A stretch of 64,000 nucleotides of DNA, taken from NCBI GenBank assembly GCA_008933735.1, contig WBUL01000001.1, forward strand, positions 90,057 to 154,056. The letters are read 5' to 3'. This DNA comes from Anaerolineae bacterium. Its GTDB lineage: Bacteria; Chloroflexota; Anaerolineae; Aggregatilineales; J027. Shown piece after piece: positions 1,419 through 47,900 of the stretch. Within the stretch, counting starts at the first letter, position 1, and each line of letters opens with the position of its first letter. The notes under the pieces were generated by a model, which was not told where the DNA came from, did not search any database, and was given only the letters and a program-made list of their open reading frames with translations. Made by a program: the position numbers and the translations under genes.

Positions 1419-1455
1419 TGGGCAGTTAGTTTACAACGGCTGCCCACTGTTTTCG
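1419..1455 (+). terminator. Possible intrinsic terminator for the 959..1411 gene
   Basis: A 7-bp stem (tgggcag / ctgccca) with a 14-nt loop is followed by ctgttttcg. It overlaps the stop codon and 3' end of the convergent radical SAM gene. Confidence 0.3.
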
Positions 1456-2840
1456 ACCTGTCCCTGTGTCAGTGCCATACCTACCTGACCTACTGCTATG
1501 TTTGCCCTCATTTTGAGTTCATTCAACAGGCCAATTCCCCCGTTGGATTTTGCTCGATGAAGTGCCACTTCATTAACCATCCAGCGCGTGGCAAAGCTGT
1601 AAAACCGTTTGCTGTGGCGACCGGCAACGGTTAAGTCACGGTCAGTGCGCTCTGCCCAGGGTTTATCGGCCCGAACACGCGCTTCGACTTCGTAATAATA
1701 GGCTGTCCCTTTAATCGGATAAGCAACTGTGGTGAGAAAAACATCCGGGTTGGCTAATTTGAGGTGCTGTACTGTTTCTTTAATATCATCCACTTCTTCA
1801 CCATCGTAGCCAAGCATAATGAACATCCCAGCCTGAATCCCGTATTTTTGCAGCATGTGGGTGACGTGCCGCACTTCTTCTACATCAACTTTGCGTTTCA
1901 TGTAATCGATGACTTTTTGCGATCCGCTTTCCGATCCGTTCCAGAGACGATAACAGCCCATTTCCGCCAGCGTCTTGACAACCTCCTCATCCAGACGGTC
2001 GGCACGGGAAATACACTCAAAGGGAATCCGCACACCCCGGCTGGTGAGGGCTTCGTGAAATTCAAAGAACCAGCGCCGGTTGATCGTAAAAACATCATCG
2101 GCGTACCAGATTAAATCCGGGCTGTAACATTCCTTAATCCATAGAATTTCATCCGCCATGCTTTCGGGCGAGCGGCGGCGGTGACTTTCTCCAAATACGG
2201 AATGACTGCACCAGGTACAGGTATACGGGCAGCCCCGCGCACAGATGACCGAAACCGAGCTCTGCCCATGATGAACTTTCCACACCCGCATATATTCAGG
2301 CAGATCAATCGCTTCACGATCCGGCCAGGGGAGGGCATTCAAGTCCTTTATGAAGGCACGCGGTGAATTTTCCACAACTTCGCCATCACCACCCAGAAAA
2401 GCGATGCCGGAAATCTGCTCTAACTGGTTCAAACCATAGCGGGCCAGATGTGGCAGCAGTTCTTCCAGTGTAAGTTCACCTTCTCCTTTGACGATGACAT
2501 CCGCGCCATATTCAAGGTATTCCCTGGCGTAATAGGGAGGTTCCGGCCCTCCCAAGACAACCAGGATTCCCTGTTGTTTACAAAACCGGATCATCCTGAG
2601 GATATTCTGCTTGGTCATGAGGTTTGTATAAAGTCCGACCACCGAAGGTCTTTCCTGCCGCACCATATGTTCAAAGCCCGCCATTGATGCAAAAGTTGCA
2701 TCAAAAATCCCCACATCAAAGCCCTTCGACTTAAGATACGAGGAAAGATGCAGTATTCCTAGCGGCGGGTAGGGTCGCATGATCTTTAATTCATGCGGGT
2801 CATCATACAGAAAGTAGCCATGTGCCAGCAAAATATCCAT
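1431..2840 (-). CDS. B12-binding-domain radical SAM protein (class B rSAM), specific function unknown
   Basis: The N-terminus is Rossmann-like and resembles a cobalamin-binding domain (MDILLAHGYF...PPLGILHLSSYLKSKGFDVGIFD...VVLGGPEP). The radical SAM cluster motif CPYTCTWC (CxxxCxxC) lies within ICARGCPYTCTWCSH. Confidence 0.85.
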   Translation of the reverse strand: MDILLAHGYFLYDDPHELKIMRPYPPLGILHLSSYLKSKGFDVGIFDATFASMAGFEHMVRQERPSVVGLYTNLMTKQNILRMIRFCKQQGILVVLGGPEPPYYAREYLEYGADVIVKGEGELTLEELLPHLARYGLNQLEQISGIAFLGGDGEVVENSPRAFIKDLNALPWPDREAIDLPEYMRVWKVHHGQSSVSVICARGCPYTCTWCSHSVFGESHRRRSPESMADEILWIKECYSPDLIWYADDVFTINRRWFFEFHEALTSRGVRIPFECISRADRLDEEVVKTLAEMGCYRLWNGSESGSQKVIDYMKRKVDVEEVRHVTHMLQKYGIQAGMFIMLGYDGEEVDDIKETVQHLKLANPDVFLTTVAYPIKGTAYYYEVEARVRADKPWAERTDRDLTVAGRHSKRFYSFATRWMVNEVALHRAKSNGGIGLLNELKMRANIAVGQVGMALTQGQVENSGQPL

Positions 2841-2847
2841 ACAACAA

Positions 2848-4128
2848 CTATCCCTTTGGCGTCAGTGATCGGTTCATCACTTCTTCAACAATCTGCACAT
2901 CCTGTTGTGAAAACGCGCAGAGGTAAATTCGCTTGAGTGTGAAATTTTTTCTGTTCTTATAACTTTTATAACATCCGATAAATGTCTTCACCATCAGCTC
3001 AGCGATATCCAGGATTTCGCTGGTACGTCCCCCTTGTCCGGTGGCGAACAGAGGGAAAATGATGCTTTCAATATTTTTATAGTGGTCTTTCTGAGCCTCT
3101 TCCTGGTCACGACGCGGCCTGCCTACCGGGGAAATGAGCCCTTTCTCGCCGTTCACACGGATCACCTCACGAAAGCAGTTTCGCACCCCGTCCTCGATTC
3201 CCGAATTATCTGCCGAAATCATCTTCAGGGATTGTTTTGGGTCAACCTGAACCATCGCAACATGAAAGATATAGCGGGCATCATTTTCTTTGACCAGTTC
3301 ACTTTTGTCGTGTCCTGCATGTGTTGGGATCACATGCCCGGTGGCGACAGGGATGTTGTAATTTTCTGACATGAGTTGATCGTATAACTCTAGCTGAACC
3401 GTATCTTCTTTGAACCGGCCTCGTTCAACCCAGGAACCTCGCCAGCGCAGGTTGGAGGACAGCGAGCTGGTTTCAAAAACCCGCGCCATTTGCATATAAC
3501 TGTTTTCTGAATTGACCAGCACATCAATTCCTGACATACGGGTCATGTCTCCGGCAGCGAGGTACACCGTCAACTGCTCCAGCGGCACCTCTGGCAGTCC
3601 ATACACACGATGTTCCTGGTCATCCGGGGAAAACTTGGTTCTGACTTCCGGCTTTTGCTCATTCAACCTGCCAAGACCGATGAGCAGTTGGTCACGGGCT
3701 TCCAGAGTCTTGTGCTTGTTTCGCTCGATTTGTTCTACGAGAGTCCTGTACTGATGGTCTTTGGATTCTCGATAATCAACATATTGAACATTCGGCAGCG
3801 CGAGTTTACTCAAAACCTGGTTCACATCAAAACTTCCCCGTATCAGCACGGGGATAACGTATACATGAGTTCGTTTGGCGATCTCGATTTCGCGTCTGAC
3901 CCAGGCAGATTCGGCGGCAGGTTCAGAAAGCAGCAGCAGCACCATGTCTCGTACAGGTATCGCTTCAAAGATCTGTTCGTCCCAGCGTTCACCGCCCGCC
4001 AGATTTTCTGTGTCCAACCACACATCGTAATCATCCTGCATCAGTCTGCGCCGCAAATCCTGGGCGTCGCCCGTTAAGCCGTCATCTCGGCCTGTTTTAT
4101 AACTGATAAACAACCGTGCCTTAGGCAT
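2848..4128 (-). CDS. TIR domain - macro-like domain fusion protein
   Basis: The N-terminus matches bacterial TIR landmarks: LFISYKTGRDD...DVWLD...GERW...AI...MVLLLLSEPAAESAWVRREIEIA, with SxWxxxE and Glu80 at the usual catalytic position. The C-terminal ~240 aa matches macro-domain landmarks: LAAGDMTRMSGIDVLVNSENS (compare GDIT..DAIVNAAN), ATGHVIPTHAG...YIFHV, and IIFPLFATGQGG (compare FPaISTGvyG). The start is ATG preceded by GGAG. Confidence 0.7.
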   Translation of the reverse strand: MPKARLFISYKTGRDDGLTGDAQDLRRRLMQDDYDVWLDTENLAGGERWDEQIFEAIPVRDMVLLLLSEPAAESAWVRREIEIAKRTHVYVIPVLIRGSFDVNQVLSKLALPNVQYVDYRESKDHQYRTLVEQIERNKHKTLEARDQLLIGLGRLNEQKPEVRTKFSPDDQEHRVYGLPEVPLEQLTVYLAAGDMTRMSGIDVLVNSENSYMQMARVFETSSLSSNLRWRGSWVERGRFKEDTVQLELYDQLMSENYNIPVATGHVIPTHAGHDKSELVKENDARYIFHVAMVQVDPKQSLKMISADNSGIEDGVRNCFREVIRVNGEKGLISPVGRPRRDQEEAQKDHYKNIESIIFPLFATGQGGRTSEILDIAELMVKTFIGCYKSYKNRKNFTLKRIYLCAFSQQDVQIVEEVMNRSLTPKG

Positions 4129-4186
4129 TTTTCACTCCATAATTTCTTTATCTATAAGTTACGATGAGAATAGTTGCTATGGGCCA

Positions 4187-14989: not shown

Positions 14990-17554
14990 TCAATTGGTTT
15001 CCAGATCGACGTTAAAAAAAGTCTCGCAGCCTACGTTGCCAGCGCGGGCAGCCTCAATCAACCGATCATACTCCATCCCCAATTCAAATTCGCCTGCCTG
15101 ATTCAAATCATGAACGGCCAGCACGAGACGATCCAATCTGGAGAAGGCTTCTGCACGCAGCAAATACAGAATGGCAAAGTCAGGATCAAGCCTTATTGCT
15201 CTTGTATAAGCTTCTGCCGCCGCCTCAATGTCCCCCAGATTACATTGAGCGAGTCCCTGCACCAAATACAAATCAGCAACTTCATCATTGATCGCTAAGG
15301 CAGCGTGAATATCTGGGAGAACTTCGCTGTAACGCCCCAATAACATATTCCCGGCTGCCGAAAAGGTCAAGCCAATAAAATTAGAGGCTACGTTCCCGTA
15401 GAAGCCAACGATACCACGATTCGCCAGCGTAGGATCAGGGAACTCAGTCACCACAAGGTTAGCATAATACTGAGCATCGCTAAGCCGTCCCGCACGCAGC
15501 GCAAGCAGTGCTGCGTAAATGTAAGGCCAGTTGGCTTCCGGGCCAAGCGCTATCGCCCGATCCAGATCGGTTTTGGCAGCGTTGTAATCACCTTTCGCGT
15601 AATACATCACTCCCCGGAACGTAAGGGCAAACCAATCGTCAGGGCGAAGTTCGATAACTTTGTTATATTGTTCGATAGCACCATCTAAATCATTATTGAT
15701 ATAAAATGCCTCGTTGCCCAGCATTAAGTACGTAATGGCCCAATCCTCTCCCCCTAAACGCTGTCCGGTCATCGCATCGCGCCGACCGTCAGCACTGCGT
15801 CCCAGGCGATAGTTGGCTATTCCGCGCATTGTATAGAGCAGAGGATTACCCGCATCCAGGTCAATGGCAGCATTCATGGCTTCAAGCGATTGTTCGGTAT
15901 CATCCAGGTAAAACTCAAAAAAACGCTGCACCTGTGCTGAAACCCCACCGCCTGTAACTTCAGCCTCATTAACCTCCAATTCATCCAGAACCGCAATATT
16001 CCGCAGCATATTAAACGCATTCCCGTTTGCCGATTCAAGTATCTGAGATAAGCGGATCACCATCGGCGCAATTGACTCCGTTTGCGGATCAATGACACGC
16101 AGCGACACATTGGCCGTTCTTTCCATCATCTCTCGCGGAAAATCGATGTATGGAAACGCGCTTGTTACTCCCATCTGAAGTTCTAAATTGACAATGTTGG
16201 CGTCATAGTTACCCCAGACGACAACCGCCGCTCCGTTGGTTTCGGCGGCGGCCAGCGCAGCAGCCGGGGTCGTGAGCACCTTCGGATATGCTCGCACGCG
16301 AAAGTTAGAAAATGGCACTTCCTTTTCCAGGGTCTGGGTAAGTTCATTCACCAGCAAACGAGTTACCGAGCGTTCTTCACCACCTACTCGCTCCAATTCC
16401 GCCACCAGCACCATATACTCCCCTGGGGCAACCGGCTCAACCCGTGCTGTTCTTTCTTCAGTTTCAGCCGGGGTGTCATCCCGCCGCATCAACAAAAACA
16501 GGACACCCAGCACCATCAATGTAAGAACGACACCCATAAGCAGGGCCAGGCGCTGGCGTTTGCGGGCAGCTTGCAAGCTGATCATTGAGTCGGAACGCGG
16601 AGCCGATTCGCCTGGAAGCGGCTGGAGGCTCTTGTTCAGGAAAGACCGAAAACCAACACTTGGTACCGCTTCGTTGATGCTGCTCGGTGTAGGAGTAGCA
16701 AAACGCGAGACTTTTATGGGATCGCTGGTTTCCTCCAGGGTACGAAGAATTTTTTCGAGCCGCGTCCCAACCTCCCGTACACTACCCAACCGCAAATCAT
16801 GGTCTTTTTCCAGCATTTCGTAGATCAGGCGCACCAGTTCCGGCGGCGCATCGGGGCGGAGTGACTGCAAATCCGGCACATTTTCCGACATGATTTTCAG
16901 AATAATGGCAGCAGGCTGTTCAGAATCAAAAGGCCGCTTGCCGACCAGCATCTCAAACATCATTACCCCGAATGACCAGATGTCTGCACGCTCGTCCAAA
17001 ACTTCGCCATTACAGGCTTCCGGACTGAGGTACGCATAGGTTCCCACCAGAGATCCGGTCTGGGTCATACGGGAACGGTCACTAAAACGGGCTACCCCAA
17101 AATCGGTCAGGCGTGGTGTACCATCTTCCGCCAGCAGCACATTCGCGGGCTTAATATCCCGATGGATTATCTTCAAGCGATGTGCGCGAGTCAGGGCATC
17201 AGCTAAATCCAGGGAGATTTCCAGCATTCGCCGGATAGGAAGCTGTGGGGTTTCGCGCAGAAGCTGCTGCAAGCTCCCCCCGGAGACATATTCCATCACC
17301 AGGTAGTGCTTACCATCTTCTTCTACGGATGCCAGCATTTTGACGATGTTGGGATGGTTCAGACGGCGCAGAGCTTCTCCTTCCCGTTCAAAACGCTCGA
17401 CCATATCCGGGTCTTCGTGGGTAACTTCCGGTTTGAGCAGCTTGATCGCCACCGGTTGGCTTATGGCCGTGTCTATCCCCCGGTAAACTTCCCCCATCCC
17501 ACCATAGCCAATGATTTTTTCGATCTCAAAACGCCCCGCAATTTTCTCAGCCAT
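14990..17554 (-). CDS. Ser/Thr protein kinase - TM - conserved ectodomain - TPR repeats (854 aa)
   Basis: The Hanks kinase motifs are GYGGMGEVY, VAIK, HRDIKPANVLL, DFG and YLSPE. A TM segment follows (LALLMGVVLTLMVLGVLFLLM), then repeated TPR-like units. Confidence 0.9.
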   Translation of the reverse strand: MAEKIAGRFEIEKIIGYGGMGEVYRGIDTAISQPVAIKLLKPEVTHEDPDMVERFEREGEALRRLNHPNIVKMLASVEEDGKHYLVMEYVSGGSLQQLLRETPQLPIRRMLEISLDLADALTRAHRLKIIHRDIKPANVLLAEDGTPRLTDFGVARFSDRSRMTQTGSLVGTYAYLSPEACNGEVLDERADIWSFGVMMFEMLVGKRPFDSEQPAAIILKIMSENVPDLQSLRPDAPPELVRLIYEMLEKDHDLRLGSVREVGTRLEKILRTLEETSDPIKVSRFATPTPSSINEAVPSVGFRSFLNKSLQPLPGESAPRSDSMISLQAARKRQRLALLMGVVLTLMVLGVLFLLMRRDDTPAETEERTARVEPVAPGEYMVLVAELERVGGEERSVTRLLVNELTQTLEKEVPFSNFRVRAYPKVLTTPAAALAAAETNGAAVVVWGNYDANIVNLELQMGVTSAFPYIDFPREMMERTANVSLRVIDPQTESIAPMVIRLSQILESANGNAFNMLRNIAVLDELEVNEAEVTGGGVSAQVQRFFEFYLDDTEQSLEAMNAAIDLDAGNPLLYTMRGIANYRLGRSADGRRDAMTGQRLGGEDWAITYLMLGNEAFYINNDLDGAIEQYNKVIELRPDDWFALTFRGVMYYAKGDYNAAKTDLDRAIALGPEANWPYIYAALLALRAGRLSDAQYYANLVVTEFPDPTLANRGIVGFYGNVASNFIGLTFSAAGNMLLGRYSEVLPDIHAALAINDEVADLYLVQGLAQCNLGDIEAAAEAYTRAIRLDPDFAILYLLRAEAFSRLDRLVLAVHDLNQAGEFELGMEYDRLIEAARAGNVGCETFFNVDLETN

Positions 17555-17567
17555 CCGCTATCCCTTG

Positions 17568-20132
17568 TTAACCACCAAAAAACGACGCGCAGCTTAAAGC
17601 ACCCGCATCTGACTCGGCGAGGATTGCCTCGACATTAGGCCAGATGTCACTCTGCTGCGCGACCTGAAAATCTTCTAATGAGCCAGCCAGATTACCCTGT
17701 TTGTTTCGCACTTCTGCCCGCAGCAAATACAGCATTGTAAAATCAGGTTCGCGCTCAATACCCTGGGAGTACACCGCTTCTGCCTCTTCATATTCACCGA
17801 GGATGCAGTAAGCCACGCCTTTGAGCATGTACAAATCTGCAATGTCATCTCTGATTGCCAGGGCTTCGTCAGCATTTTCAATGGCAGCTTCGTACTGCCC
17901 CAGCACCATATTGGAAAATGCTGACGTACTCACCGTGAAATAACGATTGTTCGTAGATTCACCCCCTGGCAGCAGACTGGAGAGACGCACTGTCAGCGTC
18001 GGATCGGGAAAATCTGTCAACACCGTATTTAACAGCGCAATTGAATCATTAATACGCCCTTCGCGGATCGCCAGCATGTTTGACGTGATATAGGGAATTG
18101 CTGAATTAGCACCAATCCCAATTGATTGTTCAAGGTCAGCCCTGGCGTTTGTGTAATCGCCCTCCAGGTAATAAAAACTGCCACGTGCCGAATAAGGGAA
18201 CCAATCGTTCGGCTCAATTTCAATGGCCTGGGTATATCGGGCAATGGCGGCCTGAATGTTATCCAGCAGCACCGCATTATTTGCCAGCAGCACATAGGCA
18301 ATCGCCCATTGTTCATTTGTCAAACGCAGCGCCGAGTTAAAATCGCGCTCTGCTTCGGTATAACGCCCGACATTGGCAAGAATATTGCCACGTTGAAGAT
18401 ATAACACCGGGTTGCTCCCATCAATGCGTAATCCTGCGGTCATTTCCTCAATCGCAGTGTCCGGGTCGGTGAAATAAGTGGAAAAATAGCGCACAAAATT
18501 CGCGCTGACCCCGGCACTTACCACTTCAAAATCATTGTTGGCGGCATACTGCTCCACCACCAGCAGGCTGATAGCCGCTTCAAATGCCCGATCCTCAATC
18601 GTGTGAATCAGCACCATGGCAGAGGCAACCGGCATAACAATCGTCTGGCGGCGGGGGTCTTCTATTCGTAAGCGAACTGCAATACTTTCTTCGATCTGGG
18701 AACGGTCAAAAAGAGAGGTCTCGACTACACCGGGGCTGATGTTCAGGTTAATGACTTCGTCATCATAATTACCCCAGACAATCAGATGTGCCCCGTTGGC
18801 CTGGGCCGCTTCGACGGCTTGTTCCTCGGAAGTAATCAGCCCGTTGTAATCACGGATGCGGATTTGGGCAACAGGCGCACCTGTTTCAAGACGATTGGTC
18901 AAATCTTCAAGGATAAACCGTTTAACATCCCGTTCTTCACTTGCCAGGTTTTCCAGGTTTGCCACCAGCACCATATTCTCCCCTGGCGCTACCGGATCAA
19001 CCAGCACAATCGCCGACGTGGGGGCAGCCTCTGGAGCTTTCGATTGATCCTCCCCCCCTGTACCACCCAGCAGCGCCAATACTCCAGCGGCGATAACCAA
19101 CACAGCGATTCCAGCCCCTATTCCTATCCAGCGTCTTGATTTCGCTGGTGATGAAGGAAGTACAGCACTCGGCGAGGACTGCGGCACAATATTTTGTGAT
19201 GAGCCAGGCGTGATTGTTGCGCCCTCCATAAATGGCGAAGGCGAAGGGGTCGGAGTCCTGAAACGTCCCGGATCACCTGGCGGCACACTGCCACGAATCC
19301 CACTGCTCAACATCTCCAGGATGGCTTCCAGCTCTGCCCCAACGAGCCGCACGCTGGAAATGCGTTTTTCTTTATCTTTTTCCAGCATTCGCAGAATGAG
19401 TGAGATCAACTGTGGCGGCGTATCGGGCCGAAATTCCAGAATATCCGGTACGGGCTTGGTCATGATGTCCAGCAGCACAGCCGTTTGTGTGTCCGCCTCA
19501 AAAGGCCGCCGCCCTGCCAGCATTTCATATAACACCACGCCAAACGACCAGATATCGGTACGGGCATCCACACGTTTCCCTTCGCACGCTTCCGGGCTGA
19601 GATAGGAATACGTGCCGACGACGGCTCCGGTTTTAGTGATTGTACCCAGCGTGGTTTTACCGATTCGCGCCACGCCAAAATCAGTCAGTCGCGGAACACC
19701 ATCTTTGGTCAACAGAATATTTGCTGGTTTAATATCCCTGTGAATAATCTTCAAACGATGGGCACGAGTTAGCGCGTCTGCCAGATCAAGCCCGATCTGC
19801 AAAATCCGCTCTATCGGAAGTTGGGGCGACTTCCGCAGCAGATCAAGAAGTGATCCCCCTTCGACATATTCGAGAACCAGATAATACTCTTCATTTTCCT
19901 GAACAGTCGAAATCATTTTGACGATGTTGGGGTGGTTTAGCTGACGCAGCGCCTCGCCCTCCCTTTCAAAACGTTCCATCAGCTCCGGGTCTTCCATCAT
20001 GACTTCTTTTTTGATGGTCTTGATTGCCACATCCTGTTCCAGTTGAAGATCGTGACCATGATAAACCAGACCCATTCCGCCCTGACCAATAACTTCACCT
20101 AACTCAAACCGTCCCGCAATAATCTCACCCAT
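17568..20132 (-). CDS. Ser/Thr protein kinase - TM - conserved ectodomain - TPR repeats (854 aa from the chosen start)
   Basis: The architecture matches 14990..17554. I chose the ATG at 20132 (MGEIIAGRFELGEVIGQGGMG). The 40-codon upstream extension in the ORF track overlaps the 3' end of the upstream kinase. Confidence 0.85.
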   Translation of the reverse strand: MGEIIAGRFELGEVIGQGGMGLVYHGHDLQLEQDVAIKTIKKEVMMEDPELMERFEREGEALRQLNHPNIVKMISTVQENEEYYLVLEYVEGGSLLDLLRKSPQLPIERILQIGLDLADALTRAHRLKIIHRDIKPANILLTKDGVPRLTDFGVARIGKTTLGTITKTGAVVGTYSYLSPEACEGKRVDARTDIWSFGVVLYEMLAGRRPFEADTQTAVLLDIMTKPVPDILEFRPDTPPQLISLILRMLEKDKEKRISSVRLVGAELEAILEMLSSGIRGSVPPGDPGRFRTPTPSPSPFMEGATITPGSSQNIVPQSSPSAVLPSSPAKSRRWIGIGAGIAVLVIAAGVLALLGGTGGEDQSKAPEAAPTSAIVLVDPVAPGENMVLVANLENLASEERDVKRFILEDLTNRLETGAPVAQIRIRDYNGLITSEEQAVEAAQANGAHLIVWGNYDDEVINLNISPGVVETSLFDRSQIEESIAVRLRIEDPRRQTIVMPVASAMVLIHTIEDRAFEAAISLLVVEQYAANNDFEVVSAGVSANFVRYFSTYFTDPDTAIEEMTAGLRIDGSNPVLYLQRGNILANVGRYTEAERDFNSALRLTNEQWAIAYVLLANNAVLLDNIQAAIARYTQAIEIEPNDWFPYSARGSFYYLEGDYTNARADLEQSIGIGANSAIPYITSNMLAIREGRINDSIALLNTVLTDFPDPTLTVRLSSLLPGGESTNNRYFTVSTSAFSNMVLGQYEAAIENADEALAIRDDIADLYMLKGVAYCILGEYEEAEAVYSQGIEREPDFTMLYLLRAEVRNKQGNLAGSLEDFQVAQQSDIWPNVEAILAESDAGALSCASFFGG

Positions 20133-20149
20133 CACCACCAGACTTCCTT

Positions 20150-21199
20150 CTAAAAAGTAACCGTCTCCAAAATCGCCGCATCCGTATATGCAAGGATGGC
20201 AACTAATACCACAGACAGCGTCAATAATAGCAGTACAAATATAATCATACATCCAATCCGCCGCTTGAAATTCAGAACTGCCTTTTCCTCTTCGGTAATT
20301 TTTCTACGAGAAAATGTTTCTGGTGGCGGTTGAAACCGGGAAAAAGCGACCGCAGGCAGCGACTGCCGAATACTGGTATCCAATCCCTGGATAATTGCCT
20401 CCAGTTCTGCGCCTACCAGCCGCACACTGGAAATCCGTCTTTCGCGGTTTTTTTCCAGCATGTCGTAAATCAAACTGACCAACTGCGGTGGAGCATCCGG
20501 GCGCAGTTTTTTTAAATCGGGGATGGGTTTGTTCAGGATAGAGACAAGGATAGCGACCTGCTGCTCTTCCTCAAAAGGCCGCCGCCCTGCCAGCATTTCA
20601 TATAACACCACGCCAAACGACCAGATATCAGAGCGCGTATCAGCGATTTCCCCGGTGAGCACTTCTGGACTCAGATAGGCGGATGTCCCGATCAGATCGT
20701 TCGTGCGGGTAATCACCCCACTATCGACCATACGGGCCACACCAAAATCGGTCAGGCAGGGAGTGCCATCATTTTTCAAGAGGATATTCGAAGGCTTGAT
20801 GTCCCGGTGGACAATTCTCAGGCGGTGAGCACGAGTCAGGGCGTCTGCTACATCCAGCCCAATTTGCAGTATCCGGTCAATCGGCATTTGTGGGTGTTTC
20901 CCCAACAAATCCTTCAGCGACCCACCTTCAATATAATCCATCACTAAGTAATGCTCATCCCCCATGTCAAAGTTTGCGATAACTTTGGCAATATTGGGGT
21001 GATTCAACTGGCGAAGCATTTCAGCTTCTTGCAAAAAGCGTGTCAACAGCGTGGGATCATCCAGAAGGGCGTCATTTTTGAGAATCTTGATAGCGACCAT
21101 ATGCCCGGTCGCCATATCCACCCCACGATAAACGTTGCCGTTGCCGCCGCGTCCAATGAGCCGCTCAATGCGGAATCGATCTGCGATTAGTTCGTTCAT
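20150..21199 (-). CDS. Ser/Thr protein kinase with a single C-terminal TM anchor (349 aa)
   Basis: It has the Hanks motifs GRGGNGNVY, VAIK, HRDIKPSNILL and DFG. The C-terminus is hydrophobic (CMIIFVLLLLTLSVVLVAILAY). Confidence 0.9.
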   Translation of the reverse strand: MNELIADRFRIERLIGRGGNGNVYRGVDMATGHMVAIKILKNDALLDDPTLLTRFLQEAEMLRQLNHPNIAKVIANFDMGDEHYLVMDYIEGGSLKDLLGKHPQMPIDRILQIGLDVADALTRAHRLRIVHRDIKPSNILLKNDGTPCLTDFGVARMVDSGVITRTNDLIGTSAYLSPEVLTGEIADTRSDIWSFGVVLYEMLAGRRPFEEEQQVAILVSILNKPIPDLKKLRPDAPPQLVSLIYDMLEKNRERRISSVRLVGAELEAIIQGLDTSIRQSLPAVAFSRFQPPPETFSRRKITEEEKAVLNFKRRIGCMIIFVLLLLTLSVVLVAILAYTDAAILETVTF

Positions 21200-41966: not shown

Positions 41967-44900
41967 CTAACTACTTTTCGCAGTTGGCATTTTAACATAG
42001 AAGGTTGTCCCCTTCCCTACCTCACTCTCAAACCAGATACTGCCTTTATGCATTTCAACCAGCGATTTAACAATGGATAATCCCAGACCAGTGCCAGGGG
42101 TATCCAGCACGAGAGATTCATACTCATCCCCCCGGAAGAAGCGGTCAAAAACACGATCTTGAATTTCTTTTGGAATACCCACCCCGGTATCAGACACACT
42201 CATCACAACCGCGTCTCCTTCCTGGCGGGCAACCAGCGTAATCACCCCGTCAGCAGGCGTATAATTGAAAGCGTTATCTGCCAGATTCTGCATCACCTGA
42301 AGGGTTTTGTCGTAGTCAGCCCAGATTTTCGGCAGTGCGGCATCCATGTTCACATTGATCTGCATAGGTTTGTTACTATCCTGCGTGCGCCCCTCCAGAT
42401 GGCTTCGAGTGCGTTCCAGCAGATCGGGAACTTCGACTTCTGTGAATCGTAAGGGCACACGATTCTGGTCAATCTTGGAAACTTCGAGCAGGTCATTCAC
42501 AAGAATACTCAGACGATCAGCATTTTGTTTGATGGTTTCCAGGAAACGCTGCTGCGCTTCTGAAATTTCGCCTGCTGCCCCAAGCAGCAGCAGGTCCGCA
42601 TAACCTTTGATAGAAGTCATAGGAGTCCGCAGTTCGTGAGACACCGTAGACACAAATTCTGTCTTCAGACGATCAACTTCCATCAACTGGGTGATGTCAC
42701 GAATGACGGATACTGTGCCCAGAAATTGATCGCCCATGTTCACCGGAGAAAGACGAACGTTAATTGTACGTCCATCCCCCAATTCAATGGCAAGTTCTAC
42801 GAAATCCCCTTCCATATAGGAGGCGGGGTCACTTGTCCAACGGTTGATCGCCGCCAACCAGTCGCCACCGCTTCCACCATATAAACCCGCCAGTTCACGA
42901 ATGGGGCGATTGACCACACGTTCAGCCGGAAGCTGCAAAATACGTTCTGCTGCCGTATTGAACAGCACAATCGTGCCCGATTCGTTGGCATACATGACCC
43001 CATCTGCCACCGAGTTGATAATGGCCGTGTTTTTAGTCGATTCAATCTGTTCCGTCCGCAAAATGGCGCCCAAGCGTTCCGCCTGGTCCCGGATGAGGCT
43101 GTAGAGTTCGGAGTTGTTCATTGCATTCGCAAGCTGGCTCGCCGCCGCGGCTACCAGTTTCAGATGATCTGCATTAAACGCGCCGACTTTTTCGCTGAAG
43201 AGCATCATAACGCCGCGTACATCATCACCGCCCTGCAAAAGCGACGCCACCGCCGCACGGTGCCGCCGATCACGGTCACTGACCACTAACCAGCGCGGGT
43301 CGTTCTGAACATCCTCGATCACCACATTGGTCTGATTCTCCAACACCCAGCCGGCCAGCCCTTCGTCCTGTGCCAATTGCGTCCGCATATCGTCTGGCAC
43401 TGGTTCTTCTTCGCCATAGGCATGAAGCACATACAACCGTTCCGAAATCTCATCAATGCCCAGGATTACCGCGGTTGTCGCGCCAATGGCACGCGCCACT
43501 TTTTCCAATGCAACAGAGAGAATCCGCTGAATATCCAGCGAGGCAGCTACTTCGGATGTGATGTCATACAGCGTAGAGACACGCTCGCGTTCCTGATCAA
43601 GTTCAGAAGTGCGTTCGTTAACACGAATTTCCAGGCCCTGTGCAAGTTCTGCGGTCTGCTCAAACAGCCGTGCATTCTGGATAGCCACACCTAATTGAGC
43701 CGCTACTGTCGTCAGAATACGCTGATCGTTCAGACCAAACGCGCGGGGGTTCTCATTATCCTGAACTGCGAGCACCCCGACCACTTCCTCACCAGAAACC
43801 ATCGGCACCCCGAGGAAACACTTTGTGTCCGGCATGAAGGGATCACTGATGCCAAAGCTGCGTCGCGCCTCAACCATCTGTGACCCAGCCAGCAGCAGAG
43901 GGCCTTTGCGCCGAATGACATACGAAAATTCATCATTCCCCATTGGCAGCGGTGGCAGGGTAAGATCACCTCCCTCGCTCTGCACGGCAATCGGGAAACT
44001 GATTGTGCTCTTTTCTCTGTCAAACAGCGCCACATACAAAACATCCGCATCCAGAAGCACCGGTAGCTGGTCACGTACAATCGGGAATAATTCATCCACA
44101 TCAACCGTACTGGATACCGCTGTTGACAGGTCGTTGATAATATACAACTCCTCGATATGAGAGCGGGTTTCAGTCTGCAACCGAGCATTCTCAATGGCGA
44201 CAGCCGCGTTACTGGCAAGTGTTCGCGCCAGGCGCACGTCAGCCGTTTCAAAATAACGGTTCTGCTCACGGATTTCGAGTTCAATCAACCCGATGGACAG
44301 ATCATTCACCACCAGTGGCACCAGCAAGCGGCTGGTCGCGCCCCGCCTCTCCATCAGGCTAATTTCTCTGGGATCCACATCTTTTTGTCCCAGACGCATG
44401 GCGACCACCTGGCGCTGACGCAGCACCCGCTCACGCACCGGAAACTCACTCAATTCATAAATCGTACCGGGCAAATCCGCATAATCAGTATCTCCCCAGG
44501 CATTGATGGCTGCGTGAATTTCCAGCTTGTTTTCAATATCATCCCACAGCGCAATCGAACAGGCATCCGCCCGCAGCGCTGAGAGCATCTGACTGACTAC
44601 ACGCCGCATCGCTTCATTCAAATCAAGGGTTATTGCAGTCGCCTGAGCGGCCTCAAACAGGGTTTCCAATTCGTGGGTACGAACAACAGATTGTTCAAAC
44701 AGGCTCGCATTCTGCACCGCAATAGCGGCCTGACTTGCCAGCGTCTGGGCAATTTCGAGGCGTTCTTCAGAGAAGTCGTAGTAGTCTTCCATCACTTCAA
44801 ACTGCATCGCCCCAATGACCGTTCCGCCTACAACCAGCGGCACAATCAACGCGCTGCGAACCTTTTCAGGACTCCGCATGAAGGGTCTCAGATCGTCCGC

Positions 44901-47900
44901 AAGCGGCGAATTCTGGAAATCTTCAATGATGAATGGCAGCAGTGTTTCGCGGATACGTGCGACCACGCGGTTATCGGGCAGTGGATATACCTTGTTCGGC
45001 GCTTGATGCCCACGCGGATATTCCACCACAATACGCCCAAGGTCATTCTCGTGGTCAATCTTGATGGCGGCGGCCTCCTGGATTTCCAGTGCTTTGGCTG
45101 TTTCGCGCAGGGTAATTTCCAGAATATTTTCTATATCCAATGACTGTGCCAGCGAAACCGCGACACGGTTCAGCAGTTCCAAACGCTGTGCCTGATTTCT
45201 GAGTTCGCTGGCGCGTTGATTGGTCTGCTCGAACAACTGGGCATTATTCAGAGATACAGCGGCCTGGTTTGCAAACGTGAGCAGCAGTTGTTCGTGATGG
45301 GCCGAATAGAAATGCGGCTGTTCTTTCTCAACCGCAATCACCCCAACAATCGCATTCTGATAAATCAGCGGCGCACCCAACCAGTTTTTATACGGCAGGG
45401 CCTCTCCATAGGGGAAACGCGGGTCATTCGCACCAATATTCCCGACATTTACCACCTGCCGATTTTCGGACATTTCACGAAACAGCGTACTGCTGTCAAT
45501 GTCCACATACAACCCGACCAACTCTTCCGCCGAAGCCACATCCGGGTGTTTGTAGCCTTGAGCTGCTGCCACCCGCAAACGTGTTCCTTCACGCAGCCAC
45601 AATGACACACCATCATACGGGATCACACGGTCAAGGGCTTGTAAGATCACCGAAATAACCGAATCCGTATCTAGGTTTGAGGTAATCTGGCTGGAAACCT
45701 GAGACAGAGCACGAAGTTGTTCGGCGCGTTGTTCCAGATCGGATTGCAGTTTCGCCCGTTCGGACACGTCTTCGATCAACAGCACCACGCCCGTAACCGC
45801 ATCCCCCTGCCGAAGGGGGTACGTGTAAAAATTACCCGTAACTGTTTCCTTCAGTTTACTGTCAAAAAGAATGTCAAATTGATGGTAAGGCACGCCCTTC
45901 GCCAGGGCGCTGTCAATTGAATGGCGCAAGAAATCAGCAAATTCCGTCTCATAATCATACAGAATTTGACCTACCGCTGTCTCCTGCCAGCCATAACGCT
46001 GCTGCATGAAGGCATTCACCGAAGTGATGCGGTGATTGGTATCCAGCACGATAATACCCTGCTGGATGGACTGTACCACCGCTTCACTGTAGGCTTTTTC
46101 CGCCCGGAGGTCATCCAGCAGGCGCGAATGTTCGATGGCGACAGCAGACAGGTTCGCCATACGGCGGACAAGATCAATATTTTCTGAGAAACCGAAGGCG
46201 TTTTCCAGCTCGCTGCCCAGACGCAGCACTCCCAGGGTGCGCCCGCCTGTAATCATGGGTACCATGAGCGTAATACGTTCACCCTGTTCATACCAGCGCC
46301 GCAGGTCAGGGTAAGTCAGCGCCTGAGTATCGCCGCGCAGGTGATACAACAATGCACGGTTCTCGCGGTAGCTCAACGAGACAGAAGTACTGCGTGCAGG
46401 CAGCGGTTTGTCATCAAAAAGATGCACCTGTCCATCCGCAGTCAGTTCAACACGCTGGAGATGAAATTCTGACCCGTCCTCCGTCGGCAAGGCAACATGC
46501 ATACGAGTAAAAGCGATCATCTGTTGTAAGCCATCCGCCAGCGTGCGAATGACGGTTTCCATGTCCAGGGACGATGCTACCGCTTCCATCATAACGGAGA
46601 GGCGCTGCTCATTTTCACGCTGGTGAACCGTTTCCAGATACAGGCGGGTATTTTCCATGGCTGCTGCTGCCTGCACCGCAAACAGCTCGATCACCTGCAA
46701 ATCGGTTTCGGTGGGACGTGTGTTATTCACCGGCATTTCCAACCCGATGATCCCAATCACCCGGCTCTGTCCCTGGCCGTAAAGCGGCAGATATAAAATA
46801 TCCTGGGGATGCCATTCATCTGGCGCAACCTGTTCTGGAACGGGCTTTTCGCCGCGCAGCACATACTGCTGTACCCAGGGCTGGTCATAACGCAGATAGT
46901 AAGCAGCACCCAGCCTGAGAGACTGAAATTCCGGGTCGGCCAGGCGTTCACGCCAGACTTCCCCTGGCAGCACGGCCGCCCGCATTTTGGGCAGTTCATC
47001 ATCTTTATAGCCGACATGGATCAGCAGCGTGTTTTCCAGGTTTTCATCACGCATCGTAATGCGGACTTTTTGCCAGCCGCTCGCCTGAATCCCACGTGCG
47101 ACGGCGTCCAGGCGAGAAGGAATATCCGAGAAAAGTTGAATTTCCTGCGCGACTTTGTGAAGCTGTGCTAGACGATCACGTTCTGCCTGTGTACCAGCCG
47201 CTTCTGCCTGAATGTTTTCCAGCAGGAAATAGTTTTCCACGCTGAAAGCCGCTTCCGCCGCAAAAAATTCAAGCGTTTCAACGGTCGCTGCTGTGGGTCG
47301 CCGCCCATTGGCAGGATCATCAACACTGAACCAACCCAGCAGTTTTTCATCCGACCCGTAGAAGGGGATAAGGAACAAGTCTTCTGGGTTCCAAGCATGG
47401 GAACCTTCTTCCTGGGGGACGGTAATATGCTGGCTTATTTCATCGCTCAGCCCATCGAACATCCACTCAGCCTGATATTCGGCGGGCAGGAAATAGGCAC
47501 TGCCCATTTTCCAGCGGTCGTGCAGCAGTTTTTGGATCCTATCCAGTGTAGGTGTAATCTGCTGAGCTTCCTTGAAGGCGTCTGAGGTCAGGCCATACTG
47601 CGCTACACGGCGGAAAACCTGGGTTTTTTTGTCCCAGACATTCATCAGCACCACACGAAAACCAACCGTTTGCGACAGGGTCCGTGCCAGGTCTCCCAGC
47701 ACTTTCTCAAGCGTTGCACCTTCGCGGATGGTTTCACCCAGCGTATAGACTTTGCTCAACTGATCGGCCCGCCCGCGCAGCATTTCGTTCATACGAAGCT
47801 GCTCACGGTAACGGCGAGCATTCGCAACCGCCAGAGAGGACTGTTTGGTCACCCGTGCCACAAATTCCTGGAGTGAACTGCTGAAGGCATTCGGAGTTTT

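Follow-up and report, generated by a model that had tools for sequence, protein, structure and literature searches.

This work deals with a gene of an Anaerolineae bacterium (Chloroflexota) in which a TIR domain and a divergent macro domain are joined in a single protein, hereafter the TIR-macro protein. The gene lies on contig WBUL01000001.1 of assembly GCA_008933735.1, within a stretch of 64,000 nucleotides (positions 90,057 to 154,056 of the forward strand) that was analysed as a whole and that we call the window; all coordinates given for the gene refer to it. An earlier, sequence-only reading of the window had picked out an open reading frame (ORF) of 426 aa at 2848-4128 as a TIR-macro fusion. 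Interval and length stand, and the strand, which that reading had overlooked, is the minus strand: the ATG-initiated ORF of 426 codons fills the interval from 4128 down to 2848, and the plus-strand translation of 2848-4128 is riddled with stops. The product is identical to NCBI entry KAB2906106.1 from an Anaerolineae metagenome-assembled genome (MAG), of which the sole annotation is 'TIR domain-containing protein'. The locus holds the following features.

2848-4128, minus strand: complete coding sequence of the 426-aa TIR-macro protein, with the stop codon at 2848-2850
3763-4116, minus strand: TIR domain, residues 5-122 (Pfam TIR_2; family profile; AlphaFold2 predicted local distance difference test score, pLDDT, above 90)
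3889-3909, minus strand: SAWVRRE motif of the WxxxE type (residues 74-80), containing W76 and Glu80, the predicted catalytic residue, from conservation in two alignments
3574-3762, minus strand: predicted helical extension and flexible linker, residues 123-185, the least conserved part, with low model confidence at residues 156-161
2869-3573, minus strand: divergent macro domain, residues 186-420 (family profile against the PDB; Foldseek)
3472-3522, minus strand: macro strand and remodelled loop 1, VLVNSENSYMQMARVFE, residues 203-219, with N209 invariant and E208, Q213, M214, R216 and E219 at least 90% conserved
3028-3066, minus strand: putative macro phosphate-binding loop 2, SIIFPLFATGQGG, residues 355-367, with G364 invariant, aligned to PARP14
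4129-4186, minus strand: 58-nt AT-rich intergenic spacer 5' of the TIR-macro gene (G+C content 0.33), holding a GGAG ribosome-binding site
1431-2840, minus strand: gene for a B12-binding radical-SAM protein, starting 7 nt past the TIR-macro stop codon; context only, outside the family's conserved module

A TIR and a macro domain in one polypeptide

The N-terminal half is a bacterial TIR domain, as the sequence-only reading had proposed, and the landmarks it had quoted lie where it placed them (FISY at residues 7-10, DVWLD at 35-39, and SAWVRRE at 74-80). Pfam TIR_2 (PF13676) matches residues 7-130 at E=2.1e-18, scoring 67.4 bits where the cut-off is 28, a family profile searched against the PDB retrieves the TIR structures of SARM1, AbTir, SPARTA TIR-APAZ, and Cat1, and Foldseek matches the N-terminal half of the AlphaFold2 model to TIR-APAZ. 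Conservation was read from two alignments, of 84 and 95 sequences, that reach down to about 27% identity. In the first (84 homologs) S74 and E80 are invariant and W76 is at least 90% conserved, and in the second (95 relatives) all three are at least 90% conserved, which bears out the placing of Glu80 in the catalytic position of an SxWxxxE motif. With this catalytic glutamate, the TIR half is predicted to cleave NAD+. When PADLOC and NCBIfam models are run on the protein, they return TIR-module matches only (pAgo-associated TIR, ThsB1, and ThcB4), all far under the system-level thresholds.

Recognizing the C-terminal half takes more than the query itself. With the query alone, Pfam Macro (PF01661) gives nothing at E<=1, a phmmer search of the macro half against the PDB found nothing, and the NCBIfam macro models yield sub-threshold matches only (E 4e-4 to 0.018), situated at the two ends of the macro half. 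Sequence motifs alone are therefore insufficient for the macro call, and profiles are needed. Family profiles searched against the PDB reach PARP14 (1.4e-8), PARP15 (6e-8), and MacroD2 (1e-6), and also YmdB and macroH2A, over a range of E values from 1e-8 to 1e-4, and all interpretable PDB matches of the macro-half profile are macro domains. Moreover, 12 of the 95 relatives reach PF01661 on their own. For the C-terminal half of the AlphaFold2 model, Foldseek returns macro structures with E values between 1e-8 and 1e-10, and the template-modelling (TM) scores to the macro domains of macroH2A, Af1521, and PARP14, normalised to the target, are 0.71-0.81. The family profiles, the relatives' Pfam matches, and the predicted structure thus together confirm, at the level of profile and model, the macro identity that the sequence-only reading had assigned from motifs, and the macro landmarks quoted there are also correctly placed (GDMTRMSGIDVLVNSENS at residues 193-210, IFHV at 287-290, and IIFPLFATGQGG at 356-367).

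The two domains are joined by a linker that is far less conserved than either of them (mean pairwise identity of 39% and 42% for the two domains vs 22% for the linker). The AlphaFold2 model, built from the 84 homologs, has a mean pLDDT of 94 and a predicted TM score of 0.73, and its sole uncertain stretch is the linker segment 156-161. A viral structure library returned macro folds or TIR-like folds separately only. The protein is predicted to be soluble, with no transmembrane segment (the maximum 19-residue Kyte-Doolittle hydropathy is 1.15), and its domains are TIR and macro only, in agreement with the earlier remark that no transmembrane, nuclease, or SIR2 effector is attached to it.

Within the macro half, N209, R228, D242, Q245, P260, G272, H289, and G364 are invariant in both alignments, and G193, N206, E208, Q213, M214, R216, E219, S224, and G231 are nearly so. 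In the HMMER alignment, the GD(M)T...DVLVNSEN stretch falls on the canonical GDIT...VNAAN strand, and loop 2, SIIFPLFATGQGG, is aligned to the PARP14 motifs SIAIPAISSGVFG and SICLPAIGTGNA. Of the motifs of an ADP-ribose pocket, D194 (70-90% conserved), the invariant N209, and G364-x-G366 are present, and the GGG of loop 1 is absent. The canonical NAAN...GGG[VL]D loop is replaced by the VLVNSENSYMQMARVFE stretch, in which a conserved, family-specific YMQMARxFE takes the place of the glycine-rich loop 1 and the region of the MacroD catalytic Asp. As regards the MacroD-type hydrolase motifs N...GGG[VL]D and G-[IV]-[FY]-G, only the Asn is kept, and loop 2 reads GTGxGG, lacking the aromatic residue. 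Another catalytic mechanism would be compatible with the lack of these motifs. From these residues, the macro domain is predicted to bind ADP-ribose or a derivative thereof.

A dedicated family and its neighbours

The TIR-macro protein belongs to a rare family with about 180 clusters at 50% identity, and homolog collection gave 218 full-length relatives. When the macro half by itself was run with HMMER against 1.84 billion representatives in an exhaustive scan, 482 matches were obtained. Of these, 180 lie at E<=1e-10 and 92 reach E<=1e-30. In nearly every case the protein is 405-440 aa long and the matched region is at the C-terminus, and TIR_2 was found in 90 of the 95 sampled members, the other five being short fragments. 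This macro half thus occurs almost only at the C-terminus of TIR proteins of about 410-440 aa and is therefore a macro subfamily dedicated to the TIR fusion, which makes the fusion obligate.

A few members depart from the common architecture. P0070 and P0106 (587-591 aa) are TIR-TIR-macro variants, and P0220 (1088 aa) carries an N-terminal extension of about 670 aa ahead of TIR-macro that may be a dedicated sensor. One locus (L070, 3696-4970) looked like a split pair of genes, called as a 146-aa TIR gene and a 258-aa macro gene; we rejected it as a case of fission, since a single in-frame stop, at codon 147 (Arg in the consensus), interrupts an otherwise intact ORF. A second sample (L071) again shows the macro gene of L070 together with its downstream neighbours, and the interrupted ORF could be a pseudogene, a case of readthrough, or a functional split.

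Scanning one genome per species (185,579 species) yielded at least 58 loci, or about 0.03%; these counts are lower bounds, because a single conserved peptide pattern was used. Chloroflexota, mostly Anaerolineae, account for 34 loci and Actinomycetota for 11. The remaining 13 belong to others, the scattered hosts including Bryobacterales, Thermoanaerobaculia, several Proteobacteria, one cyanobacterium, and one planctomycete; a Lokiarchaeota protein is also among the collected homologs. Searches of 50,697 phage records, 72,556 plasmids, and the contigs of IMG/VR returned no member of the family. At least three TIR-macro copies occur in one genome, pointing to paralog expansion. Divergence is also faster in TIR-macro than in its neighbours: the closest homolog is 63% identical vs 83% for the radical-SAM protein next to it, and the family median is 37% vs 51% for the NUDIX neighbour described below. 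The distribution is patchy and accessory, and not that of the uniformly core gene that the sequence-only reading had allowed it might turn out to be.

To describe the neighbourhoods, ORFs of the 58 loci (which are phylogenetically non-independent) were called with a simple longest-ORF caller, and all neighbours were clustered. The most informative clue, missed by the sequence-only reading, is a recurrent NUDIX neighbour of the ADP-ribose type. This protein of about 205 aa lies beside TIR-macro in 25 of the 58 loci (22 of 47 when only loci with 1 kb or more of flanking sequence on each side are counted), with gaps of 4 to 317 bp. Its gene is immediately upstream and divergent in 19 cases, downstream and convergent in three, and downstream and co-directional in another three. 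It is found in 19 of 34 Chloroflexota loci, in 4 of 11 Actinomycetota loci, and in 2 of 13 others (two MAGs of uncertain affiliation). Three of the four NUDIX neighbours tested pass the cut-off of the NCBIfam YffH/AdpP model (TIGR00052; 125-137 bits vs 79.6), and the best equivalog match is ADP-ribose diphosphatase, below the equivalog cut-offs. The partner in Nonomuraea is a different, NudE-like NUDIX with 22-24% identity to the others, a sign that the same class of activity was recruited independently. Compared pair by pair, the sequence identities of the NUDIX proteins correlate with those of the TIR-macro proteins, with a Spearman coefficient of 0.50 that was reached by 1 of 2000 permutations. 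No NUDIX of this type is encoded anywhere in the 64-kb window.

Some loci combine these genes in other ways. In a Phototrophicaceae MAG with a 6.25-Mb contig (L005/L016, 10001-13205 and 16356-18416), the paralogs P0022 and P0101 flank one short NUDIX gene, and a TIR-only protein (331 aa) with an adjoining 339-aa protein is encoded about 6 kb downstream of them; a partial TIR-macro match (residues 1-227), cut by a contig end, was noted with L005/L016 and L050. In a divergent Chloroflexota/Phototrophicaceae clade (L046, L051, L054, and L059; at about 11300-13600 in L046), NUDIX and TIR-macro are followed by an ATPase of the MutS domain V type (557 aa) and then, on the opposite strand, by a phosphoribosyltransferase (200 aa). 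This order could reflect an extended module or plain synteny.

Directly downstream of TIR-macro and co-directional with it, 11 loci encode a secreted VIT-VWA protein (about 760 aa, with a signal peptide; e.g., L028, 11349-13634), which is nearby in 17. We considered it as a member of the module and left it out, as all its loci but one (a MAG labelled Bacteroidetes) are Chloroflexota and the pairing may thus be inherited synteny. The other neighbours (146 proteins, 150 Pfam families) are mostly metabolic, with no family in more than three loci. Metabolic genes seen next to TIR-macro, in the window or in relatives, include those for 2-hydroxyacid dehydrogenase, radical SAM, acyl-CoA dehydrogenase, and isocitrate lyase. 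Among the 146 proteins of loci L011-L044, those with a conflict flavour are nSTAND1 NTPases in three loci, an extra TIR in two, and Phage_portal in three, so that a few loci may adjoin a prophage or conflict system. Neither a separate effector nor a second TIR is conserved among the neighbours of the 58 loci, and the protein must therefore be largely self-contained.

The copy in the window sits between a 2-hydroxyacid dehydrogenase gene and the B12-binding radical-SAM gene. Given the 7-nt distance, the latter is probably co-transcribed with it. Its product most resembles BchE, ApyD, and HpnJ-type enzymes among the NCBIfam models, all under the cut-off. The closest homolog of TIR-macro has the same radical-SAM gene 5 nt downstream and a different upstream gene, and none of the 58 other loci shows the pairing. 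We therefore interpret it as synteny specific to a sub-lineage and rejected the radical-SAM protein as a functional partner; its PADLOC match to PDC-M51A (39 bits) reflects generic radical-SAM homology.

On the upstream side, the GGAG ribosome-binding site lies 6 nt 5' of the TIR-macro ATG (CTCC on the plus strand, 4135-4138), and no consensus promoter was called in the spacer at 4129-4186. The AT-rich character of this 58-nt spacer and the count of 18 G+C in 2941-3000 had both been given correctly by the sequence-only reading, which took them, together with AT-rich stretches inside the gene, as a hint of a separate origin. No such signal emerges. The gene has a G+C content of 0.495 vs 0.516 +/- 0.020 across the 43 long ORFs of the window (about 1 standard deviation) and a third-position value of 0.542 vs 0.554 +/- 0.031, and it lies at the 15th percentile among windows of the same length. 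Its composition is native to the window, and the hint of a foreign origin is not supported on these grounds, both values being about 1 standard deviation or less from those of the window's genes.

The rest of the window is of a housekeeping nature, with genes for MurJ, exonuclease VII, an enoyl-ACP reductase-like protein, a RimO-like protein, ArsA, and a UbiB-like protein. No defence island is present, and CD-NTase and Cas10 are absent from the window and from the conserved neighbours. The only strong PADLOC matches in the window amount to generic kinase homology in two Ser/Thr kinase-TPR proteins. The defence-system context considered in the sequence-only reading thus does not materialize, most relatives likewise having housekeeping or metabolic neighbours and the family lacking phage, plasmid, or viral matches in the collections searched. 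The two kinase-TPR proteins are probably encoded by the tandem ORFs at 14990-17554 and 17568-20252 (minus strand; 854 and 894 aa), and their matches to the PD-T4-6, mad6, and MkoA kinase models, with E down to 1e-88, are very strong and generic. Elsewhere in the window, a 2,939-aa ORF at 41967-50786 (minus strand) is probably the source of multi-GAF Pfam matches (E about 1e-129).

Candidate functions of the module

We regard it as secure that the TIR domain, the macro domain, and in about half of the relatives a NUDIX pyrophosphatase constitute a selected module around NAD+-derived ADP-ribose or a derivative. The sequence-only reading had suggested either a self-regulated NAD+-depleting protein or a signal-quenching module, and these remain the two leading hypotheses. 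The best reading in our view, held with somewhat less than even confidence, is an NADase under ligand control, with the macro domain as the sensor of ADP-ribose or a derivative and the NUDIX enzyme as a brake. The TIR domain would cleave NAD+ to nicotinamide and ADP-ribose or an ADP-ribose derivative. The macro domain, with its adenine-contacting Asp, ribose-contacting Asn, loop 2, and family-specific loop 1, would bind ADP-ribose or a derivative and, as a nucleotide sensor, may control the self-association and activity of the TIR domain in the manner of SAVED, STING, CARF, and ARM domains. The TIR domain's own product is a candidate ligand of the macro domain; as product and ligand would be of one class, feedback is plausible. 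A neighbouring NUDIX enzyme would remove ADP-ribose or the ligand, and could thereby set a threshold, reset the switch, or detoxify the product. Biologically, the outcome would be a conflict- or stress-triggered depletion of NAD+ leading to growth arrest.

This proposal builds on the domain identities, residue conservation, obligate fusion, NUDIX linkage, and chromosomal, non-mobile context established here, from which we infer that the protein is an NADase, that it binds a ligand, in which direction it is regulated, and what its physiological role would be. In its favour, we count the signature of an accessory gene, namely the patchy spread (58 of 185,579), the paralog expansion, and the fast divergence. 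Several observations weigh against it. The macro domain has no specific sequence affinity to the sensor macro domains of Thoeris ThsA, and its nearest macro relatives include readers and hydrolases alike. The invariant polar residues E208, N209, Q213, R216, E219, S224, R228, D242, Q245, and H289 would suit an active site equally well. The NUDIX gene is missing from about half of the loci, the window included, and is therefore not obligatory. Finally, the surroundings are not those of a defence island, and phages, plasmids, and viral contigs yielded no member of the family.

The signal-quenching option would make the protein a bifunctional signal synthase/hydrolase, following the logic of Rel/SpoT or GGDEF-EAL proteins: the TIR domain would make an ADP-ribose-derived messenger (e.g., a glycocyclic ADP-ribose isomer or an ADP-ribose conjugate), the macro domain would hydrolyse it to ADP-ribose, and the NUDIX enzyme would clear the latter to AMP and ribose-5-phosphate, with the receptor or effector encoded elsewhere. 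In favour of this option, conserved polar residues crowd the remodelled loop 1, where the acidic E208 stands beside the invariant N209 and is accompanied by Q213, R216, and E219, and the sequence and fold neighbours of the domain include the hydrolases MacroD1/2, YmdB, and Af1521. Macro-fold enzymes hydrolyse 1''-O-linked ADP-ribose esters, and PARG the 1''-2' ribose-ribose bond, a type present in 2'cADPR. TIR, macro, and NUDIX would together form a complete pipeline from NAD+ via the signal and ADP-ribose to AMP, and the housekeeping-type chromosomal context and long-lived Chloroflexota synteny fit physiological signalling. However, the protein lacks GGG[VL]D, the canonical catalytic loop of MacroD, its conserved neighbours include no candidate receptor or effector, the family occurs far too sparsely, also in Anaerolineae, to be a core signalling pathway, and two constitutively active halves would amount to a plain NADase in their net reaction. 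All in all, we regard such a synthase/hydrolase as the main rival and a serious one, although rather unlikely. The metabolic-gene neighbours, the lack of any mobile-element association, the native composition, and the phosphoribosyltransferase near TIR-macro in four loci would also agree with housekeeping or salvage catabolism of NAD+, in which a regulated NAD+ glycohydrolase is accompanied by macro and NUDIX activities that clean up ADP-ribose and reactive or esterified by-products, with no role in conflict or signalling. This explanation strikes us as improbable, given the patchy occurrence (about 0.03% of species genomes), the paralog expansion, and the rapid divergence relative to neighbours; moreover, the TIR domains most closely related to it, those of ThsB, SPARTA TIR-APAZ, and SARM1, belong to NADases with immune or effector roles, and we know of no TIR-based NAD+ salvage route.

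Even less credible, to the point of being very improbable, is a fused and compacted type II Thoeris system, in which the TIR domain makes His-ADPR or a similar molecule, the macro domain acts as its receptor in cis, and killing falls either to the protein itself or to a membrane effector from an unlinked gene. It would employ the same two domain types (bioRxiv 10.64898/2025.12.03.692087; PMC11204291), and the ThsB_TIR and ThsB1 models match weakly. On the other hand, the protein carries no killing module, transmembrane or otherwise, neither a model nor a structure of a ThsA macro domain was matched, there is no two-gene operon, and the best NCBIfam Thoeris match scores 52 bits vs a cut-off of 220.

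Going one step further, TIR-macro and NUDIX may represent an undescribed, self-contained ADP-ribose-signal module, either as a SpoT-like synthase/hydrolase for an ADP-ribose-derived second messenger in the physiology of filamentous bacteria or as a self-amplifying NADase switch, with the fused macro domain reading the TIR's own product and a dedicated NUDIX enzyme setting the firing threshold; we consider this rather unlikely. In bacteria, plants, and animals, TIR enzymes write and macro domains read immune signals based on ADP-ribose, and to our knowledge the two have so far been studied as separate proteins. A conserved, obligate TIR-macro fusion with a recurrent NUDIX and without a separate killing module thus offers a compact system for how TIR output is sensed, limited, and reset. 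If the macro domain gates the TIR domain, it would be a new class of sensor for TIR effectors and possibly a product-feedback switch; if it acts as a hydrolase, the host itself would encode an eraser of TIR signals.

Relation to known systems

The protein belongs to the TIR and macro superfamilies and falls outside the described Thoeris types, CBASS, type III CRISPR effectors, and MacroD hydrolases. In the searchable literature, surveys of Thoeris and of NAD-ADP-ribose biology included, we came across neither a TIR-macro fusion nor a module of TIR-macro with NUDIX, and an earlier mention at the level of a catalogue may exist. A systematic TIR survey discarded standalone TIR proteins, and this may be a reason why the family has gone unexamined.

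Type II Thoeris comes closest in its parts, as it pairs a catalytic TIR with a macro domain: the TIR product is read by the macro domain of ThsA, which binds ligands of the ADP-ribose type and oligomerises on binding (PMC11204291; bioRxiv 10.64898/2025.12.03.692087). TIR-macro, in contrast, is one polypeptide without a transmembrane killer module or a second gene, has a NUDIX partner in relatives instead, and carries a macro domain without specific similarity to those of ThsA. The type II arrangement (a ThsB TIR beside a transmembrane-macro ThsA) was found neither in the window nor in the 58 loci. As for types I, III, and IV, the ThcB4 model gives the 52 bits mentioned above, and no SIR2-SLOG or caspase-like neighbour was found. 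The sequence-only reading had likewise placed the protein outside the described Thoeris layouts, which agrees with the PADLOC matches to TIR modules only, the lack of any match to a ThsA-macro model, and the absence of a ThsA macro domain among the 52 PDB matches at E<=10.

In architecture, the protein resembles the effectors in which a domain that senses a ligand or partner is combined with a TIR NADase, namely TIR-SAVED, TIR-STING, CARF-TIR Cat1, SARM1 ARM-TIR, and SPARTA TIR-APAZ, all of which are gated by assembly. A standalone TIR-SAVED effector that senses a host nucleotide and works alone is a precedent (bioRxiv 10.1101/2025.06.19.660554). The TIR-macro protein differs in having a macro domain as the putative sensor, in lacking an adjacent signal synthase, and in a candidate ligand that is the TIR's own product class. 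We found no description of a macro domain as a TIR-fused sensor in the literature, and the likeness to the sensor-TIR effectors of CBASS and type III CRISPR is architectural only.

The macro half shares with the domains of MacroD, macroH2A, and PARP14 the predicted fold (TM 0.71-0.81), the GD-x-T...VN-x-x-N strand, and the S-I-x-F-P-x-x-G-T-G-x-G loop 2; it differs in that the query misses Pfam Macro, about 50 extra residues are inserted, and loop 1 is YMQMARxFE. A genetic coupling of an NAD+-consuming enzyme to a macro domain is also known from SirTM-macro operons and DarT-DarG, which belong to the theme of ADP-ribose in conflict (PMC9503650). There, a sirtuin or an ADP-ribosyltransferase modifies macromolecules and the macro domain reverses the modification, whereas here the enzyme is a TIR and the two are fused. 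The NUDIX neighbours, in turn, are akin to NudF and YffH-AdpP by the TIGR00052 and ADP-ribose diphosphatase matches given above, and are set apart by falling below the equivalog cut-offs and by being dedicated, by position, to the TIR-macro gene. In TIR-macro, then, both the parts and the logic are familiar, and it is their obligate fusion and the NUDIX partner that are undescribed.

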